Of a stretch of 64,000 nucleotides of DNA, positions 17,074-60,346 are shown piece after piece. The stretch spans positions 9,086 to 73,085 of the forward strand of contig CAVQHC010000009.1 in NCBI GenBank assembly GCA_963712235.1. The letters run 5' to 3'. A program made the position numbers and the translations under genes. The notes beneath the pieces were generated by a model. That model worked only from the letters and a program-made list of their open reading frames with translations. It did no database searches and had not been told where the DNA came from. This DNA comes from an uncultured delta proteobacterium (GTDB taxonomy: Bacteria > Myxococcota_A > Polyangia > Polyangiales > Houyiibacteriaceae). How positions within the stretch are numbered: the first letter of the stretch is position 1; the number at the start of each line of letters is the position of its first letter.

Positions 17074-18095
17074 ATGGGTTACTCATCGGCGAGCGAGGCG
17101 CGGCAAGCTCGTGAATCGCTCGGCAAAGCACTCGAAGCACTGCAACAAGATGCGGACGTTCCCGAAGAGGTTCTCGGGCTGACGCAACACGTGGCCAAGT
17201 CGATCGGCGCCCTGTTCGAGGCGGAGTACGCCTCCACTGAGCCCGATGGCAAGACCTGCGTAAAGAACGCCCTTGGCACCCTCAGCCAAACTCTCGCCCT
17301 GCTCCAGGACGTGAAAAGCGACCATGCCGCGGTGCAGAGCACGACCGAAAGCATCGCAGACGTCATCAGTGTGCTGTTTCCACTGACGACTAAACCAACG
17401 CTCAGGCCAGAGGGCGCGTCAGAGCCCCCTTCCGCGGCGAGCGCACCGCCGGCGAGCGCACCACCGGCGAGCCGACCTCCGCAAGGTGTCAATCCCTCGG
17501 AGCGTCCGATTCCGCTTCGCTCTGCGCTGCGACGATCGCCTTCGGAGCGCTCTCCGTCACAACGCTCTCCGTCACAGCACTCTCCGGCGAGCGCACCACC
17601 GGCGAGCGCACCACCGGCGAGCGTACCGCCGCGAGCGTACCGCCGCCGAGCGTGGCGCCATCTGCGCGCGCGGTGGCGAGTCGGCCTGCTTCGCAGAGGC
17701 CGGTTTCTGACGGGCCTGCGCGGGTCCCTACTTCCTTGCTCCCCCCTCCTGCGCCAATTCCTGTGAGTCAACGACAACGGCTCGAGGCCAACCTTGGCGC
17801 AACCACGCAATCCAACTTCTACGTGGGCTTCAGCGGCGAGATCGCCCATGGTGGAGTGTTTCTCGCCACCTACGAAGCGTTCCCGAAAGACACCTCGGTC
17901 CGGATGCTCGTAACCCTGCCCGGCGGATTCGAATTCGAATGCGACGGCTATATTCGCTTCGTCAGAGATCCGATGGACTTCGCATCGGAATCCGAGCCCG
18001 GCATGGGCATTCAATTCGAAGGGCTGTCCGAAGAGGCTCGCGAATTGGTGATGCGCTTCATTCGCAAGCGGCCCCCGATCTTCTACGACGTCTAG
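17074..18095 (+). pseudogene. PilZ-domain protein (TIGR02266-like), frame broken in a 15-nt tandem repeat as sequenced
   Basis: Frame-1 ORF 17074.. carries a helical N-domain and an ASAPP repeat linker. Frame-3 ORF ..18095 carries the PilZ domain (GMGIQFEGLSEEA). The frames join at 17630/17631 if one base is restored. Confidence 0.6.
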
Positions 18096-34715: not shown

Positions 34716-35168
34716 ATGGGGGCGGTGGAGAGACAAAAACCCGTGCCGCACCCCGATGACAAACCGGACCTCCCCGGAAAGGCCAGACGCCGACCGAGCC
34801 ATTTCCGGAAAAAGCGCAAGGACACCACGACCAAAGTGGTGCGGGTGATCCGAAACCCCACGTCCGAACACCGTGGGGTCGCCGTCGTGGACCGAAGTCG
34901 CATTGTACCGAGGCCGCGGGTACGCCAAGAGCAGTGGAACGACGTGGTCAACCCAGCTCCCGCGCTTCCCGACCCGAGCCTGCACCGGCCGATCCCGCCG
35001 CCCGCGCCCCTGCCCTCAGAGGCCGCGACACCTGCGCCCAGCGTCCCAGGCTCGCTGTCCGAGCCGGCGCGGCGGAAGCGGCTGGAGGACATCGTTGGCA
35101 CCGTGGTCCTCGCACTCATGGTGGCCGCGATGCTGGTCGCCATGTGGTTGCGTATGACGGAATCCTAG
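34716..35168 (+). CDS. Hypothetical basic/Pro-rich protein with a C-terminal TM helix
   Basis: 150-aa ORF ending in IVGTVVLALMVAAMLVAMWL. No motif. Confidence 0.4.
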   Translation: MGAVERQKPVPHPDDKPDLPGKARRRPSHFRKKRKDTTTKVVRVIRNPTSEHRGVAVVDRSRIVPRPRVRQEQWNDVVNPAPALPDPSLHRPIPPPAPLPSEAATPAPSVPGSLSEPARRKRLEDIVGTVVLALMVAAMLVAMWLRMTES

Positions 35169-35205: not shown

Positions 35206-35417
35206 TACCGGGGCGCGGAAAAAGACGCGACACGGGGCTGCGTCGGACGGGGCGGCCTGCAAAGGTGGCCGGAAGGGCTGAGGGCCTGAGGCCACGCACG
35301 CCGCCCCTCGGAGCTCGCGCCAATCGGAGGCGGGTTGCTGTCTTGCCGATTGTCACTCACACGCCGACTCCGCCCCATATCGCGCCTTTTTCCGCGCCCC
35401 TCCATACGGAGACAGGA
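35206..35417 (-). repeat. Structured intergenic element, copy 1 (28-nt outer inverted repeat enclosing two hairpins)
   Basis: Arms at 35210-35237 and 35373-35400. Inner helices at 35249-35260/35296-35307 and 35265-35270/35290-35295. The inverse copy is at 58946-59154. Confidence 0.8.
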
Positions 35418-35438
35418 GAACAACCTTCCAACCGGCAG

Positions 35439-35881
35439 GCGGCAGCGCGAGCCCGAAGGGCGAAGCCCGGCGCCAAAGGCGCCGGCAAGGCAGAGCGAAG
35501 CGAATGCCGCGCCAGGGAGGATTACGGGTGGGGGTGGGCGGGGCGGTGTAAACAAGCCGTACCACGCACCCCCACCCAACACCCGCCTCCCCACCCACCC
35601 GCGGCAGCGCGAGCCCGCAGGGCGAAGCCCGGCGCGAAGCGCCGGCAAGGCGGAGCGCAGCGACTGCCGCGCCAGGGAGGATTACGGGTGGGGGTGGGCG
35701 GGGCGGTTCAATCAAACCTCACCACGCAACCCACCCAACCCCCCGCCCCCAAACACCCGCGGCAGCACAAGCCAAACGCCCCCCCCCCATCCACCCGCGG
35801 CAGCGCAAGCCCAAACGGCGAAGCCCGGCGCGAACGCGCCGCCAACCGCGAGCGCAGCGATGTGCGCGGCTGGGCGGGCGG
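35439..35881 (-). repeat. Array of three ~106-nt GC-rich REP-like units with C-rich spacers
   Basis: Units at 35439-35546 and 35601-35706, plus a degenerate unit at 35797-35881. The shared core is GCGGCAGCGCGAGCCC..GCGAAGCCCGGCGC..CCAGGGAGGATTACGGGTGGGGGTGGGCGGGGCGG. Confidence 0.85.
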
Positions 35882-35898
35882 TGTAACCAAAACCGCCC

Positions 35899-37611
35899 CT
35901 AAAATTCCGGCCGATCCTGATGCTGCCCAAACACCTCTCGAAACACGTCGCAGATCTCCTGCTCGGTGCAGTACACCTTTGCGGCTTCCACGATGCCCGG
36001 CATCACGTTGCGATCGGTGCGGCAGTCCTGTGCAATTGCGGCCAGTGCCTTGGAGACCGCCGCGTCGTCACGCTCGGCTTTGACCTTCGCCAAAGCCTCG
36101 ACCTGCTCTTTTTGAATTGATTCATCGACGCGAAGGGTTGGAATGTCCGGCTGTTCGTCCTGTTCGTATCGATTGACGCCAACGACCGTCTTCTCGCCGC
36201 GTTCGATTTGCTGCTGGAGGCGGTATGCCGAAGCGCCGATCTCGCGCTGCGGGTAGCCCTGCTCGACCGCCTCGACCATACCGCCCTGCTCGTCGATCTT
36301 GCGGATGTAGTCCAACGCCTCCTCCTCGAGGCGATTGGTCATCCACTCTACGTAATAGCTGCCAGCCAAGGGGTCGATCGTATTGGCGACGCCGGACTCT
36401 TCGGCGATGATTTGCTGAGTGCGGAGCGCCACGGTGACCGCTTCTTCGGTCGGAAGCGCGTAGGTCTCGTCGAGGCTGTTGGTGTGAAGTGACTGCGTCC
36501 CGCCCAGCACCGCAGCGAGGGCCTGAAGGGCTACGCGCGCCACGTTGTTGTAGGGTTGTTGGGCGGTGAGCGACACGCCGGCGGTCTGCGCATGCGTCCT
36601 GAGCATCAACGAGCGGGGATTCTTTGGACTGAACCGCTCTTTCATCAATCGAGCCCACATCCGGCGCGCGGCGCGGAACTTACCAATCTCCTCGAAGAAG
36701 TCGCTGTGGACGTCGAAGAAAAACGAAAGGCGTGGCGCGAATTCATCGACGTCGAGGCCGCGCTCGACGGCCCACTTCACGTACTCCAGACCATCGGCAA
36801 TCGTGAAGGCGAGCTCCTGGGCTGCGGTCGAACCGGCTTCTCGAATGTGATAGCCGCTGATGCTGACGCTGTTCCAGCGTGGCACCTCTTTCGCGCAGAA
36901 TTCGATCGAGTCGGTGACGATGCGCATCGCCGGACGTGGGGGAACGACCCAAGCATGCTGGGCGATGAACTCCTTTAGGCAATCGTTTTGGATTGTGCCG
37001 CCGATCTTATCTCGCGGGATTCCACGCTTATCGGCCAGCGCGACATAGAAACCCAGCAGAACGGCTGCGGGGCCGTTGATCGTCATCGACGTGGTGACCT
37101 GGTCGAGCGGAATCTCGTCAAAGAGGACTTCCATGTCGCGAAGCGTGTCGACCGCCACGCCGACCATGCCGACCTCGCCGAGCGAACGCGGCGAGTCGCT
37201 GTCGTATCCCATCAGGGTTGGGAAATCGAACGCGGTCGACAGCCCGGTCTGCCCCTGATCGAGCAGATACCGAAAACGCTCGTTGGTCTGCCGCGGCGTT
37301 CCAAAGCCCGCGAACATTCGCATCGTCCACAGGCGCCCTCGGTACATCGTGGGCTGAACGCCGCGCGTGTAGGGAAACTCACCGGGAAAGCCGAGATCAC
37401 GATCGTAGCCGTCGTCGAAGTCGGCCGGCGTCAGCAGGTCGGGGACCTCCAGATCGCTGTGCGTGACAAAGCGCTCCTTGCGCAGCGGCTGGCGGGCCAC
37501 AGCCGGCTCGACGGCCCGATCCCGCCACTGGGCAGCTCGTTCACGCACCCGCGCTTTTTTGTCATCGGACGGCATCTCAGCTGCCAGCTTTTTGGCGGGA
37601 TCCGCTTTCAT
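35899..37611 (-). CDS. Acyl-CoA (methylmalonyl/isobutyryl-CoA) mutase large catalytic subunit
   Basis: [22 protein letters not shown] and the TIM-barrel substrate domain. 570 aa with no C-terminal B12-binding domain. Confidence 0.9.
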
Positions 37612-52826: not shown

Positions 52827-54095
52827 GTGAGACGACTGCAACTCCATCATTGGATCCTGATTGCAATGGGTCTAGGCGCGGCCCTCGGGCTGGGTCTCAA
52901 CTGGGCCGGTGCCCAGGGCCTGGTCGATGCGAGCATCGTCGGCGACGTCGCCACGGTCGGCAAGCGGATCGGGGACCTCTTCCTCCGGCTCCTGCAGATG
53001 CTGGTCGTCCCTCTGATCGTTTCGTCGCTGATCACCGGAGTGACCGGCATGGGAGACCTCCGCACGCTTGGCTCGATCGGGGGGCGGGCCATCGGTTTCT
53101 ATCTAACGACGAGCTTCCTGGCGATCGTCACGGGTGTCGCCGTGGTGAACATCATCCGTCCCGGCGAAGGGGCCGAGCTTGCCCTGCTCGAAGAGGGTGC
53201 CGCCACCAAGCCGCTGTTGATCGAGACGCCGAGTAGCATCGGTGTCGTCCTTTGGGAACAGCTCGAGAGCTTGATCCCGAAGAACCCGCTCGCCGCGGCA
53301 ACCGAGGGCGACATGCTGCCCGTGATTTTCTTCTCCTTGCTGATCGGGGTTTTCATCGGGATCGCTGAACACCGCGAGGGCTCGAAGGATGCCAGCGTCG
53401 TCCGGCGTTTCTTCTCCGGCCTCTTCGACGTGATGATGCAGATGACGCTCTTCGTCGTGAGGTTCGCGCCGATCGGCGTATTCGGCTTCACGCTGTACGC
53501 GGCCGCGGGCAAAGGCCCAGCAGCGTTTCGGGTCCTCGGCTGGTACGCGCTCACGGTCTTCATCGCCCTCCTGATTCACGCAGTCGTCACCCTCCCGCTC
53601 ATCTTGAAGCTGCGAACCGGCCGCTCGCCCATCGAGTACGCCCGTCAGCTCCTGACCGCACTGGTGACGGCGTTCAGCACAGCCTCGAGCAACGGCACCC
53701 TCCCGCTAACGATGGAAAACGTCGAAAAGGCAGGAGTGAGACCGCAGGTCACCTCGTTCGTTCTGCCGCTCGGCGCCACGATCAACATGGACGGCACCGC
53801 ACTCTACGAAGCGGTGGCGGTTTTGTTCATTGCGCAGGTCTATGGGATCGACCTGACGATGACGCAGCAAGGTCTAGTCGCCTTGACGGCCCTGCTCGCG
53901 AGCATCGGCGCAGCGGGCATCCCGCACGCGGGGATGGTCATGATGGTCGTCGTCCTGAACGCAGTCGGACTACCCACCAGCGCGGTCGCCCTGATCCTCG
54001 CCGTAGACCGCATCCTCGATATGCTCCGAACAACGGTGAACGTCTGGTCGGACTCGATCGCAGCCGCCGTCGTCGACGCTGGGGAGCAGCGCTGA
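52827..54095 (+). CDS. Dicarboxylate/amino acid:cation symporter (DAACS family)
   Basis: SSNGTLP, GATINMDGTA and GIPHAGMV motifs typical of GltP/DctA-type carriers. Confidence 0.9.
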   Translation: MRRLQLHHWILIAMGLGAALGLGLNWAGAQGLVDASIVGDVATVGKRIGDLFLRLLQMLVVPLIVSSLITGVTGMGDLRTLGSIGGRAIGFYLTTSFLAIVTGVAVVNIIRPGEGAELALLEEGAATKPLLIETPSSIGVVLWEQLESLIPKNPLAAATEGDMLPVIFFSLLIGVFIGIAEHREGSKDASVVRRFFSGLFDVMMQMTLFVVRFAPIGVFGFTLYAAAGKGPAAFRVLGWYALTVFIALLIHAVVTLPLILKLRTGRSPIEYARQLLTALVTAFSTASSNGTLPLTMENVEKAGVRPQVTSFVLPLGATINMDGTALYEAVAVLFIAQVYGIDLTMTQQGLVALTALLASIGAAGIPHAGMVMMVVVLNAVGLPTSAVALILAVDRILDMLRTTVNVWSDSIAAAVVDAGEQR

Positions 54096-54137
54096 CGCTG
54101 GGACTGGCACCGACACTGACGCTGACGCTGACGCTGG
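54090..54137 (+). repeat. Imperfect (CGCTGA)n hexanucleotide tract overlapping the transporter stop codon
   Basis: CGCTGA CGCTGG GACTGG CACCGA CACTGA CGCTGA CGCTGA CGCTGG. Confidence 0.9.
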
Positions 54138-54191
54138 CAAAGACCTACCCACCCCTCCCCGAGTTCGATATCCTTTGCAAAGGGGGTTGCC

Positions 54192-56927: not shown

Positions 56928-58643
56928 ATGGCAGCCTTGGCCGCAGCTCTGATCCTCGGTGCGTTCGTGATCGCGTATCGATTCTACGCGCGATTTCTTG
57001 GCGAGCGCGTCTTCGAAGACCACGAGGAGCTCGTCACTCCCGCACACGCGCTCGAGGACGGCGTCGATTTCGTCCCCACGCAGCGCGCGGTGCTCTTCGG
57101 CCACCACTTCACCTCGATCGCTGGAGCGGCGCCGATCATCGGTCCTTGCGTGGCAGCCTATTGGGGCTGGGGTCCCGCGCTCGCCTGGGTGGTCCTGGGG
57201 ACGATCTTCATGGGCGCCGCACACGACTTCGGCGCACTGGTCGCCAGCGTGCGGGAAAAGGGCCATTCGATTGCGGAGATCACGGCGAAGACGATTAGCA
57301 ACCGAGCCCGCATTCTGTTCATGTGCTTCGTCCTGGTCCTGATTTGGCTCGTTCTCGCGGTCTTCTCCATGGCGATCGCGGGGCTTTTCGTCAGCCAACC
57401 CACGAGCGTGATCCCGATCAACATTCAAATCCTGGTTGCCATCGTGATCGGCTGGCTAGTCTACAAGCGGCGGGTGAGAATCCTTTGGCCGTCCCTGATC
57501 GCCCTCGCCGTGCTCTACTTCTTCGTGTGGGTCGGAACCGAGGTGCCTATCGACTTCGTCGCGATGGGCTTTGACAAGCACGCGGTCACGACGGGCTGGA
57601 TCTTATTTCTGCTCGTGTATTCGGCCATTGCGAGTCTCTTGCCGGTCTGGCTGCTGCTGCAGCCTCGCGACTACATCAACAGTCACCAGCTCTTCGTGGG
57701 CCTCGGCCTGCTGTTTCTCGGCGTTCTCATCGCACACCCGAGCTTCGACGCTCCGATGTACCGGACGGCACAGGCCGGCGCGCCGTCGATCTTCCCGATC
57801 TTGTTCGTGACCATCGCATGCGGTGCGATTAGTGGCTTTCACGGCCTCGTTTCGTCCGGGACCACGTCGAAGCAGCTCGACCGCCTGCCGGATTCTCGCA
57901 TCATCGGCTACGGCGCCATGCTCGGCGAAGGCTCGCTCGCCCTCGCCTCCACCCTCGCAGCGGTCGCCGGGATTGGTCTGGTCGGCGCCTGCGCGCTTCC
58001 CGGCCAAGGAGTCGTCGATGATCTGAGCTGGGCGGTTTACTACGACAGCTGGGCACATGCCGGTGGCAACAAGGCGGCCGCGTTCGTCCTCGGCGGCGGT
58101 GCGTTTCTCGAAGCGGTGGGATTGTCCCCGGAGCTGGCGCGCACGCTGATGGCGGTTTTGGTAATCGCGTTCGCAGCGACCTCACTCGACACCGCGACAC
58201 GCATCCAGCGTTTCATTCTGAGCGAACTCGGCGAGGCGCTTCGAATCAAGCCGCTGACCAACCCGTATATCGCGACCGTCATCGCGGTCGTACCGGCGAT
58301 GTACCTGGCGCTCGCCGAAACCCCAGACCCCGCGACCGGGCAGGCTAAGGCGGTCGGATGGGTGCTCTGGCCCATCTTCGGGGCGAGCAACCAGTTGCTT
58401 GCCGCCCTTACCCTGATGACGCTTTCTCTCTACTTCTTCGCGCGGAAGCGACCGGTTTGGCCGCTGGTCATTCCAATGCTCCTGGTCATGCCGGTGGCGG
58501 GCCTCGCGCTCGTCACGAAGCTCCAACAGTTCCTCGCCGAAGGCAACGCCCCACTCACAGCATTGGCATCCCTTCTACTCGTCCTGCTTCTGTGGATGAT
58601 CGTCGAGGGGTTGATCGCGGTACAGCGCTTGAGACGCGTTTGA
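56928..58643 (+). CDS. cstA: Carbon starvation protein A
   Basis: LFGHHFTSIAGAAPIIGP and GFHGLVSSGTTSKQ motifs. Polytopic, 571 aa. Confidence 0.92.
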   Translation: MAALAAALILGAFVIAYRFYARFLGERVFEDHEELVTPAHALEDGVDFVPTQRAVLFGHHFTSIAGAAPIIGPCVAAYWGWGPALAWVVLGTIFMGAAHDFGALVASVREKGHSIAEITAKTISNRARILFMCFVLVLIWLVLAVFSMAIAGLFVSQPTSVIPINIQILVAIVIGWLVYKRRVRILWPSLIALAVLYFFVWVGTEVPIDFVAMGFDKHAVTTGWILFLLVYSAIASLLPVWLLLQPRDYINSHQLFVGLGLLFLGVLIAHPSFDAPMYRTAQAGAPSIFPILFVTIACGAISGFHGLVSSGTTSKQLDRLPDSRIIGYGAMLGEGSLALASTLAAVAGIGLVGACALPGQGVVDDLSWAVYYDSWAHAGGNKAAAFVLGGGAFLEAVGLSPELARTLMAVLVIAFAATSLDTATRIQRFILSELGEALRIKPLTNPYIATVIAVVPAMYLALAETPDPATGQAKAVGWVLWPIFGASNQLLAALTLMTLSLYFFARKRPVWPLVIPMLLVMPVAGLALVTKLQQFLAEGNAPLTALASLLLVLLLWMIVEGLIAVQRLRRV

Positions 58644-58649
58644 CGGGTG

Positions 58650-58922
58650 GCGGCCGGCTCGCGCTGCCGCGGGTGTTTGGGGCGGGAGTGTTGGGCTCGC
58701 GCCACCGCGGGTGTTTGGGGGGGGCGGGTGCGCGTGTCGCCGTGCGGCTTTCGCTGCCGCGGATGTGGTGGGGGCGGGAGTGTTGGATGGGTTGACTGGT
58801 TTGGTTTAGTTACACCGCCCGCCCACCCCCACCCGTAATCCTCCCTGGCGCGGCATTCGCTTTGCTCTGCCTTGCCGGCGCCTTCGGCGCCGGGCTTCGC
58901 CGTTCCGGGCTCGCGCTGCCGC
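58650..58922 (+). repeat. REP-like unit (58815-58922) preceded by decayed unit/spacer fragments
   Basis: This is the reverse complement of the 35439-35546 unit. The fragments repeat ..GCTGCCGCGGGTGTTTGGGGCGGG.. three times. Confidence 0.8.
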
Positions 58923-58945
58923 CTGCCGTTTGGGGCGGTTGGTAG

Positions 58946-59154
58946 TCCTGTCTCCGTATGGAGGGGCGCGGAAAAAACCCGTCATGGGGTGGAGTCGACG
59001 TAACGAGTGACAATCGGCAAGACAGCAATCACCTCCGATTGGCGCGAGTTCCGAGGCTCGGCTTGCGTGGTCCAGGCCCCCATGTGCCTCCGACCACATC
59101 TGCAAGCCGAGCCGTTCGATGGAACCCCGTGACGGGTTTTTCCGCGCCCCGGTA
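58946..59154 (+). repeat. Structured intergenic element, copy 2
   Basis: Arms at 58963-58989 and 59125-59150. Hairpins at 59011-59017/59035-59041 and at 59055-59072/59092-59113. Confidence 0.8.
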
Positions 59155-59157
59155 CGC

Positions 59158-59409
59158 CTAGCTCTTCTTCACCCGCCGATAGACCCACAAAAGCGCCAGC
59201 GAGCCCGCAATCGCGATGGCAAAGCTCCGGACGTTGAACCCCGTCACGTCGCCAAAACCGAGTTGGGTGCCGATGAAGCCACCGACCAATGCGCCCGCGA
59301 CACCGAGGGCGGTCGTCCGGATGAAGCCGCCGCCGTCCTCACCTGGCATGACGAACTTGGCGAGTATGCCCGCAAGCAAACCGAACACGATCCACGAGAT
59401 GATCCCCAT
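59158..59409 (-). CDS. GlsB/YeaQ/YmgE family stress-response membrane protein
   Basis: MGIISWIVFGLLAGILAKFVMPG... a Gly-rich three-helix protein. ATG at 59409. Confidence 0.8.
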   Translation of the reverse strand: MGIISWIVFGLLAGILAKFVMPGEDGGGFIRTTALGVAGALVGGFIGTQLGFGDVTGFNVRSFAIAIAGSLALLWVYRRVKKS

Positions 59410-59477
59410 TGAAGCCCTCCTCACCGGGGAGTGTTGAGCAGGATTGGTGTTGAGGGCCAGTGTTGGTGTTTGTTACA

Positions 59478-59733
59478 CCGCCCGCCTCGACCCGAGCCTC
59501 CGGCGGCATTCGCTTCGCTCCGCCTTGCCGGCGCATTCGCGCCGGGCTTCGCCCTTCGGGCTCGCGCTGCCGCGGGTGTTTGGGGGGCGGGTCTTGGGTG
59601 GGGGGCGTGGTGAGGTTTGATTGAACCGCCCCCGCCCACCCCCACCCGTAATCCTCCCTGGCGCGGCATTCGCTTCGCTCTGCCTTGCCGGCGCGTTCGC
59701 GCCGGGCTTCGCCCTGCGGGCTCGCGCTGCCGC
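59478..59733 (+). repeat. Two further REP-like units (59478-59573 and 59626-59733)
   Basis: Same orientation as the unit at 58815-58922. The second unit has the C-rich G4-complement block; the first does not. Confidence 0.8.
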
Positions 59734-59766
59734 GTGTTTGGTGGGGGGAGTGTGGGCTGGGTTGGT

Positions 59767-59832
59767 GTCAGTGCCAGCGTCAGCGTCAGCGTCAGCGTCA
59801 GTGCCAGCGTCAGCGTCAGCGCCAGCGTCAGC
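59767..59832 (-). repeat. Imperfect (CGCTGA)n hexanucleotide tract (11 units) overlapping the DUF420 gene stop codon
   Basis: The plus strand reads GTCAGT GCCAGC GTCAGC x3 GTCAGT GCCAGC GTCAGC x2 GCCAGC GTCAGC. Confidence 0.9.
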
Positions 59833-60346
59833 GAAGCATGAAATAGATTAGGACACCGGTGATGGAGACGTAGAGCCAGATGGGAAGGGTCCATCTCGCG
59901 AGGCGCTTGTGTGTTGCGAAGCGCTGTCGCGCCGCCAAGAAGAAGGTCGTCAGGATCATCGGAAGCATCACGATCGACAGAAGCACATGGCTGATCAGAA
60001 TTGAGAAATACACGATCCGTATCGTGCCCTCGCCCTGGTAGGTCGTATCGCCGTGTGCGTAGTGGTAGAGAACGTAGCCCACGAGAAAGACGGCGGATGC
60101 GGCAAAGGCGGAAACCATGAGCCGCTTGTGAACTTCGCGTCGGCCGTTTCGAATCGCAACAAGCCCGGCAACGAGCAGGGTAGCCGAAGTCGCGTTGAGC
60201 CCAGCGTTCACGCCCGGCATGAAGCTCAGGTCTGCGTTGACGCCGCCGCCTTCCCGGACGAGCAAGAGCCAGCCGAGAAATCCGACCGCCGCGCTCGAGA
60301 CCAGGGCGTTGAAGATCCAGAAACTACGATCGCTTTGGCGAGCCAT
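59828..60346 (-). CDS. DUF420 family membrane protein
   Basis: Four-helix protein of 172 aa. The HK.LA...LP.WLYVS..GV..Y pattern is recalled for DUF420. Confidence 0.75.
   Translation of the reverse strand: MARQSDRSFWIFNALVSSAAVGFLGWLLLVREGGGVNADLSFMPGVNAGLNATSATLLVAGLVAIRNGRREVHKRLMVSAFAASAVFLVGYVLYHYAHGDTTYQGEGTIRIVYFSILISHVLLSIVMLPMILTTFFLAARQRFATHKRLARWTLPIWLYVSITGVLIYFMLR

Follow-up and report, generated by a model that had tools for sequence, protein, structure and literature searches.

The 64,000-nt stretch of DNA analyzed here (hereafter the window; G+C content 63.6%) carries two copies of a previously undescribed ~190-nt non-coding repeat family of uncultured myxobacteria, which we call E. 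Descriptively, it is established that E is a high-copy, non-coding repeat with a conserved structure, that it is dispersed in the genomes of a clade of uncultured, Polyangia-like Myxococcota and that its copies undergo turnover. A limited literature search found no published description of such an element, and its high-copy, interspersed nature is not visible from the window sequence alone.

Two copies of E in the window share one architecture

A sequence-only reading of the window had reported two inverted copies of an intergenic element, one of them at 35206–35417, and a repeat search found both where it had placed them. The repeat is real, with an extent that had been drawn too narrowly: similarity between the copies continues to ~35545 and 58815, respectively (96%), and the additional ~130 nt beyond 35417 consist of a conserved linker followed by a separate family of 160-nt repeats. 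Covariance model matches and folding delimit the two E cores and their helices as follows.

35209..35401 (−): copy A, E core of 193 nt (covariance model match of 210.8 bits, fold)
35210..35246: copy A, 5′ arm of the closing helix P1 (segments 35210–35230, 35234–35238 and 35242–35246)
35249..35307: copy A, long hairpin P2 with lower stem, 6-bp upper stem and variable apical loop (35271–35289)
35309..35363: copy A, P3a and P3 hairpin with the conserved loop GGTTGCTGTCTTG (35328–35345)
35364..35400: copy A, 3′ arm of P1
58962..59151 (+): copy B, E core of 190 nt, inverted relative to copy A (covariance model match of 213 bits, fold)
58963..58998: copy B, 3′ arm of P1, read on the − strand
58999..59053: copy B, P3a and P3 hairpin
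59055..59113: copy B, long hairpin P2
59116..59150: copy B, 5′ arm of P1, read on the − strand

Both copies fold into a common architecture, in which P1 (37 bp) encloses the long P2 hairpin and a shorter, two-part P3a/P3 hairpin. The minimum free energies are −120.8 and −113.6 kcal/mol for copies A and B (z = −5.4 and −7.0), and none of 200 dinucleotide shuffles folded as well. Most of the helices had already been recognized by comparing the two copies. The outer inverted repeat is indeed present, although it is longer than the 26–28 nt first given, with 37-nt arms (35210–35246 with 35364–35400 in copy A) that are 86% complementary. Also confirmed were the 7-bp CAATCGG/CCGATTG hairpin, the compensated 6-bp helix (GTGGCC/GGCCAC versus GTGGTC/GACCAC), the sequence switch within the inner third of the outer helix and the diverged apical loop. 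The proposed 12-bp helix, which is the lower P2 stem, exists with one mismatch in copy A, and the claim of three helices kept by compensatory substitutions holds with the amendment that a fourth covarying helix, P3a (CGGNNN/NNNACG), lies underneath the 7-bp P3 hairpin. A segmental duplication was rejected as the origin of the pair because the two 570-aa genes beside copies A and B are unrelated. Full-length members of the wider family measure 187–195 nt and all have terminal inverted repeats.

E is a large family in uncultured Myxococcota

At least ~130 distinct full-length copies were recovered from Myxococcota metagenome-assembled genomes (MAGs) and sediment metagenomes. A strict pattern for both ends of E, applied to a species-representative genome collection, returned 46 loci with 44 true members from 11 species-level MAGs, nearly all of them Myxococcota (Polyangiaceae, “Myxococcales”, “delta proteobacterium”). 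Using a pattern for the P3 hairpin only, at least ~90 more full-length copies (97–223 bits) were found on metagenome contigs, and a covariance model built from the strict-pattern members detected extra degenerate, truncated or interrupted copies in those loci. Genomes contain several to more than ten copies, with at least 6–11 strict-pattern copies in individual MAGs, and many copies are cut by contig ends. The CstA protein encoded in the window has at most ~90% identity to database proteins, all of which are from Myxococcota MAGs.

A phage or plasmid origin was rejected, as blastn searches of the respective collections gave no match to E; the sole pattern match on a viral contig was not confirmed by the covariance model. 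The suggestion that E belongs to no known RNA family stood up: at gathering score, the window gave no Rfam 15 match, and relaxing the search to an E-value of 10 added nothing but sub-threshold, miRNA-like hairpin noise, with no match of E to the msr, HEARO or IS605-orfB motifs. ARAGORN predicted neither tRNA nor tmRNA in the window, and mimicry of an acceptor stem plus CCA was dismissed, as “TCCA” follows the helix in only ~60% of copies. E does not encode a protein, since copies differ by single-base indels, as the sequence-only reading had argued from structure; moreover, the distances to the stop codons have no frame preference.

Compensatory changes in all helices

Across 46 copies aligned with MAFFT, 96% of the pair cells are paired, with double-sided changes at 16 pairs (135 cells). 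None of 500 shuffles reached the observed values, and slid controls were 38–50% paired. A model-based alignment of 103 copies gave 94.4% paired cells and double-sided changes in 37 of 60 pairs (589 cells), again reached by 0 of 500 shuffles and with slid controls at 40–46%; this alignment is biased towards structure, and an independent MAFFT alignment of 129 copies agrees with it. Selection on secondary structure, as proposed from the two window copies, is thus borne out by paired cells and double-sided changes far above shuffles and slid controls, and the pairing is maintained in ~130 further copies elsewhere.

Even the outermost part of P1 changes with compensation in the wider family (GGGGCGCGGAAAAA/TTTTTCCGCGCCCC, GGGGCTCGG.../...CCGAGCCCC, GGGGCACGGGGGAAC/GTTCCCCCGTGCCCC and GGGGCTCAGCGCGAC/GTCGCGCTGAGCCCC), and only the CGGGGC/GCCCCT tips of this helix are constant across subfamilies. 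By contrast, hardly any variation is seen in the P3 loop (GGTTGCTGTCTTG) or in the junction strands. Copies with uncompensated substitutions, which the sequence-only reading had set against a structural interpretation, do occur: L021, L028, L031 and L034 have mismatched, recombinant-looking inner arms, and others are truncated. They form a small minority and look like decaying members of a repeat family. At three loci (L065 1053–1240, L089 11300–11487 and L137 1675–1863), the 3′ arm of P1 is replaced by a common foreign end, CATGAGAAGGCCACCCGGTGTCAAGGGGGATCGGGCCCC.

The P3 loop (TGCTGTCTT; also UGCUGUCUU) has a perfect 9–10-nt complement, (C)AAGACAGCA, downstream of E in 14 copies; in L029, L030, L036, L006 and others it lies ~47 nt beyond the 3′ end of E. 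In 15 copies, an AGACAG complementary to the loop is found at +8 (35409–35414 and 58949–58954 in the window), and complements in 5′ flanks or shuffles never exceed 8 nt. Judged from these complementarities, the loop and its downstream complement may engage in a predicted long-range pairing.

The antisense strand is the one selected to fold

Mismatches within the helices are strongly strand-asymmetric. Read in gene-sense orientation, the MAFFT alignment contains 229 A·C or C·A mismatch cells versus 23 G·T cells, and the model-based alignment 167 versus 13; in addition, P2 contains a tandem T·C/C·T mismatch in ~45% of the copies. Read on the opposite strand, the A·C cells turn into G·U wobbles and the tandem T·C/C·T into tandem G·A/A·G. 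The reverse (antisense) strand has the more stable fold in 116 of 129 copies, with a mean advantage of 8.2 kcal/mol, as it has in copy A (−126.9 versus −118.6 kcal/mol) and copy B (−118.0 versus −110.1 kcal/mol). The base composition of E is balanced (G 34.3%, C 33.9%), and its loops are A/C-rich on the antisense strand. Mutational bias was rejected as the source of the asymmetry: unpaired columns show a purine over pyrimidine transition bias of only ~2:1, so that mutation alone is not enough for a ratio of ~10:1.

The asymmetric mismatches therefore indicate that one single strand is selected rather than a duplex palindrome, and they point to one folded single strand where the sequence-only reading had left the choice between RNA and single-stranded DNA. 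Copy A is sense to the abutting + strand gene and pairs best on the − strand; copy B is sense to the abutting − strand gene and pairs best on the + strand. The selected folding strand is the antisense strand of the abutting gene, i.e., − for copy A and + for copy B. This conflicts with the genomic context described below, from which transcription of the sense strand within a 3′ UTR is to be expected. For the window copies and most copies with 160-nt repeats (class-a copies), antisense RNA could come from transcripts that read through from the convergent far gene; this source fails in tandem gene contexts.

E lies directly past stop codons of housekeeping genes

In the window, each E abuts the end of a gene on one side and faces a convergent gene across further repeats on the other.

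34716..35168 (+): gene for a 150-aa protein without Pfam match; TAG stop at 35166–35168, ~40 nt 5′ of copy A
35402..35435: conserved linker CCATACGGAGACAGGAG..., which separates E from the 160-nt repeats; contains the AGACAG complementary to the P3 loop
35436..35890: ~3 units of a structured 160-nt repeat family, filling the rest of the spacer between the convergent genes
35899..37611 (−): methylmalonyl-CoA mutase gene, convergent far neighbor of copy A
56928..58643 (+): CstA gene, convergent far neighbor of copy B
58650..58927: 160-nt repeats beside copy B, present as units and fragments
58928..58961: conserved linker beside copy B
59158..59424 (−): GlsB/Transgly_assoc gene; TAG stop at 59158–59160, 6 nt from copy B

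Among 112 scorable copies, 95 stand behind a same-strand gene, i.e., in sense orientation. The stop codon is typically about 0–14 nt away (median 12 nt; 63 of 96 copies at 30 nt or less), and the nearest convergent gene on the far side of E is at a median of 262 nt. Gene contexts are convergent in 43 cases, tandem sense in 17, tandem antisense in eight and divergent in four. The neighbors are housekeeping genes such as rpoD, whose stop codon directly abuts E, cstA and the genes for methylmalonyl-CoA mutase and an aminotransferase, and Pfam searches with ten neighboring proteins returned housekeeping domains. Clustering of 248 neighboring ORFs revealed no recurrent protein family beside E, only orthologous neighbors. 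Stop codons that abut E are TAG in 35, TAA in 19 and TGA in nine cases, compared to 270, 98 and 270 for the other ORFs of those loci. TAG and TAA together are enriched beside E (54/63 versus 368/638, p = 2.5e-5, with a baseline that includes some spurious ORFs).

Both orientations of E occur in the window, 23 kb apart, without a switch in GC skew, so that the orientation of E follows the gene rather than replication. A replication-coupled insertion into single-stranded DNA, as in IS200/IS605-like elements, was rejected on the same grounds, together with inverted pairs at distances of 0.1–1.5 kb elsewhere.

E is one module of a mosaic

E is accompanied by a linker, an L-module, a T-module, an AT-rich module and the 160-nt repeats, all in fixed relative order. 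On its far side, E is followed by the linker (CCATACGGAGACA...) and then 160-nt repeats, by the AT-rich module or by a terminator-like module. Class-a copies, which have 160-nt repeats, lie almost only between convergent genes (21 versus 2), whereas a tie of the AT-rich module to tandem gene contexts proved unsupported (12 versus 6). The terminator-like module stands on the far side of E in ten copies, eight of them at exactly 19 nt, and never on the near side.

Several of these modules are repeat families in their own right. The 160-nt repeats form tandem or interspersed units (35439–35890, 58650–58930 and 59503–59750 in the window), each composed of a GCGGCA...TGCCGC hairpin and a G-run/C-run hairpin, and in class-a copies their place is always the far side of E. 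Their sense orientation contains 21.7% A versus 7.9% T, and they fold better on the folding strand of E in 23 of 27 copies, a strand preference that could be a composition effect. The L-module CCGGAGAACGGCTCGCGACGGGCGTGCTCGCGGGCGTAC is a short hairpin-bearing repeat that abuts either end of E and always points into it (L004, L014, L017, L028, L105 and others); it also occurs on its own at L053 4740–4775. The terminator-like module comprises GAAAAGGGGACAGTCCCCTTTTTC and a conserved ~40-nt tail (GAAGGGTTAAGTCCAAGCACGTCACACACGACGCC), 19 nt 3′ of E (L105, L072, L143, L123, L111, L097 and L149), and itself belongs to the mosaic. Hexamer tracts of the (GTCAGC)n type, with CTGGCG/CTGACA variants, are found at 59767–59833 of the window with an inverted partner at 54089–54160 and recur in E spacers of several genomes (L048 6640–6720, L066, L100, L006 and L020). 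A set of 15-nt tandem repeats at 17435–17653 of the window (CGGCGAGCGCACCAC, 2.5–4.7 copies) is apparently unrelated to E.

Sites gain, lose and exchange E

Comparison of orthologous sites revealed filled and empty states. The stop codons of the CstA and GlsB genes are 2 nt apart in L047, 91 nt apart in L053–56, where the spacer holds an L-like module only, and 515 nt apart in the window, where repeats fill the interval; the spacings of 2 or 91 nt in relatives mark the empty site. In L048, a divergent copy of E follows an additional gene that was inserted there. The interval between CstA and DUF420 is a hot spot in L047, L048, L050, L052 and L053, with the small GlsB gene present, absent or moved, and in L048 a 23S_rRNA_IVP gene and a 159-aa ORF have been added to it along with E. 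A second pair is provided by L120, which carries a classic bidirectional terminator where the orthologous spacer of L028 holds modules and E; this filled/empty pair represents a replacement and not a duplication.

At three orthologous sites, the flanks are 87–92% identical and the elements 84–86%, with elements from different subfamilies, and E copies at non-orthologous sites of different species are up to 99.5% identical. Recombination or gene conversion could have replaced elements at orthologous sites instead of transposition. No sharp boundary of E could be defined. The flanks read ..(T)AC on the left and CCNTACG.. on the right, and those of 129 copies lack any direct repeat. The sequence-only reading had named ends of insertion sequences or MITEs with target-site duplications as the finding that would speak against its interpretation, and we detected no such duplication around the 129 copies. 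Likewise, no transposase was found within ~4 kb of any copy.

A structure-dependent mobile repeat as the favored explanation

The reading that we favor, with roughly even confidence for and against, is that E is a structure-dependent, non-autonomous mobile repeat of the ERIC/REPIN type that spreads via a strand-specific single-stranded intermediate. E is part of BIME-like mosaics occupying the short spacers behind genes, and according to this model it would be gained, lost and replaced site by site. Selection would act on the three-branched fold of a single strand, the one antisense to the gene with the abutting stop codon. A putative trans-acting protein encoded elsewhere would recognize this fold, along with the invariant loop and junctions, as its substrate and would copy or move E through a single-stranded intermediate, the existence and chemistry of which we infer. 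After insertion, E would be transcribed passively, along with the ends of transcription units.

The combination of invariant loops, covarying stems and subfamilies shared across species suggests that the fold is recognized by a specific partner, since a need for just any stable hairpin would not yield such a pattern. RNA seems slightly the better candidate for the intermediate than ssDNA, because G·U and tandem G·A pairs are tolerated and the loops are A-rich. No mobilizing enzyme for E was found among the genes adjoining the copies.

The alternative that survives best is a host function. As an RNA module with a stable fold, E would define or protect mRNA 3′ ends, insulate convergent transcription units and substitute for bidirectional terminators. 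A role as terminator substitute has been proposed for REP, ERIC and Correia elements. The position of 95 of 112 copies behind a same-strand gene at a median of 12 nt from the stop, the concentration of class-a copies between convergent genes (21 versus 2) and the presence of modules and E in L028 where L120 has its bidirectional terminator all fit such a function, as do the high stability of the fold on either strand (−110 to −130 kcal/mol) and the A5/U5 tracts that flank the inner closing helix in the window subfamily. These tracts, however, are replaced in most of the wider family (GGGGA/UCCCC, GCGGA/UCCGC and others), and a bidirectional terminator built on them was rejected given GGGGA/TCCCC, GCGGA/TCCGC and GCGCG/CGCGC in other subfamilies; a terminator scan of the window copies returned one weak site, in copy A only. 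Moreover, a clamp needs neither invariant loops and junctions nor subfamilies that are 99.5% conserved across species, the sense transcript is the worse-pairing strand, and close relatives have no E at the same site. We consider the host function possible and, on balance, unlikely.

Somewhat less probable still is that E represents a family of small RNA genes, in which the antisense strand would give rise to a discrete RNA of ~190–200 nt with a partner protein, for example as a guide-like scaffold, with the 3′ flank reading into the neighboring gene, or as a retron-like template. The G·U and tandem G·A pairs and the A/C-rich loops (CAAGACAGCAACC, AGUGAC) of the antisense strand would suit an RNA, and the architecture may be likened to that of retron msr-msd RNAs. 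Directly upstream on this strand, ~25 nt are conserved and relatively AT-rich, ending in ...GTCTCCGTATGG or ...GGATATGAATGG, and the motif GGAAC-N17-CGTA, which resembles an ECF sigma factor promoter, is found at the right distance in 12 copies. It ends ~8 nt before the antisense-strand start of E (L005, L014, L020, L023 and others). This ECF-like match is restricted to 12 of 121 copies, though, and no sigma-70-like promoter was seen beside copies A and B, nor a sigma-54 promoter match by eye beside E. Copies with the terminator module have a terminator-like hairpin only ~19 nt upstream on the antisense strand, which leaves no room for an antisense promoter. Neither a reverse transcriptase nor a TnpB or IscB gene adjoins any copy, and Rfam gave no match to msr, HEARO or IS605-orfB motifs. 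In a related form that we regard as similarly doubtful, E would be a structured RNA of a new class, derived from the antisense strand and acting as a component (scaffold, guide or template) of a mobile or defense machinery, with the protein encoded elsewhere and RNA-mediated spread; if this is true, the fixed placement at stop codons would reflect the target choice of the machinery.

Finally, E is very improbable as a classical cut-and-paste MITE, with P1 as terminal inverted repeats bound as duplex by a DDE transposase and its covariation arising from both ends co-evolving with diverged transposases: the 37-nt terminal inverted repeat, the small, ORF-less and multi-copy nature, the TA one base before E in 44 of 129 copies and the enrichment of TAG and TAA in adjacent stop codons would agree with this, but covariation extends to three internal helices, the 10:1 asymmetry of A·C to G·T is impossible to obtain from duplex binding sites, and there is neither a target-site duplication nor a transposase beside the copies. 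Target-site duplications of TA or of 5 bp, as for IS630- or Tn3-like elements, were specifically rejected among the flanks of the 129 copies; P1 bears a possible likeness to the 38-bp ends of the Tn3 family.

If the favored reading of E as a mobile repeat is true, widespread sediment and soil myxobacteria would carry a high-copy element that is recognized by its shape and not by its sequence and that colonizes the few bases past the stop codons of core genes such as rpoD. The puzzle remains that the strand selected for folding is opposite to the one that the context says is transcribed. Its answer may be a new structure-specific mobilizing enzyme, a new RNA-protein system or a new way to end transcription units, the last of which would concern GC-rich genomes with few canonical terminators. 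Apart from this, E offers a large natural covariation set for a 190-nt three-way structure absent from Rfam (~130 copies, 37 of 60 pairs). It also breaks metagenome assemblies and would be useful as a marker and annotation model for these MAGs.

Comparison with known repeat and RNA systems

E lacks defining features of MITEs, REP sequences, attC sites and retrons and matches no Rfam family. MITE-like properties are the terminal inverted repeats and the small, non-coding, multi-copy nature; target-site duplications and sequence-conserved ends are missing, and no transposase of an IS that might share such ends lies within ~4 kb of any copy. Among the MITEs of Neisseria, the Correia (NEMIS) elements resemble E in having 100–190 bp, long terminal inverted repeats, co-transcription and long RNA hairpins. 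Unlike E, Correia elements have sequence-conserved ends and a TA duplication, and E in turn has conserved internal hairpins.

The attC sites share with E a conservation of structure instead of sequence, a location directly past a stop codon in fixed orientation and a bottom (antisense) strand that folds. E is larger, lacks the RYYYAAC/GTTRRRY core sites and has CGGGGC/GCCCCT at the base of its stem; it is not found in cassette arrays or with an integrase and is dispersed beside housekeeping genes in conserved synteny. Retron msr-msd ncRNAs are common in myxobacteria, and the favored strand of E would match their layout with a closing helix of ~35 bp (a1/a2-like), a short hairpin with conserved loop, a long hairpin with variable tip and a total of ~190 nt. 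In contrast to retrons, E has no adjacent reverse transcriptase, is present in dozens of copies per genome and has no Rfam msr match, and the region downstream on the favored strand is the 3′ end of a convergent housekeeping gene.

Like REP, BIME and REPIN sequences, E occurs where several different palindromic modules cluster with linkers behind genes or in convergent spacers; a single-strand hairpin as the proposed substrate and the persistence of subfamilies in lineages are further common traits. Several distinct modules and linkers clustered at gene 3′ ends, as seen around E, are what characterizes a BIME-like mosaic. REP sequences differ in being simple hairpins of 20–40 nt, or inverted doublets of such hairpins, with a GTAG or CGTC tag, compared to 190 nt and three helices with CGGGGC...GCCCCT ends for E. 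REPINs are mobilized by RAYT (Y1 HUH) transposases, whose gene typically has the repeats on its flanks, and no RAYT gene was found near E among 170 E loci.

ERIC sequences (enterobacterial repetitive intergenic consensus, also called IRU) are imperfect palindromes of 127 bp. They are intergenic, multi-copy and non-coding and lie in transcribed regions near gene ends, as E does; both are more conserved between species than their surroundings and have a predicted RNA hairpin with compensatory changes, and a mobilizing enzyme is known for neither. E belongs to another phylum and is probably unrelated in sequence; it is longer and three-branched with a covarying terminal helix, and it has the strand asymmetry and the strict position just past stop codons. 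By its logic, E stands nearest to the ERIC, REP/BIME/REPIN and Correia elements, and attC sites and retron RNAs offer parallels.
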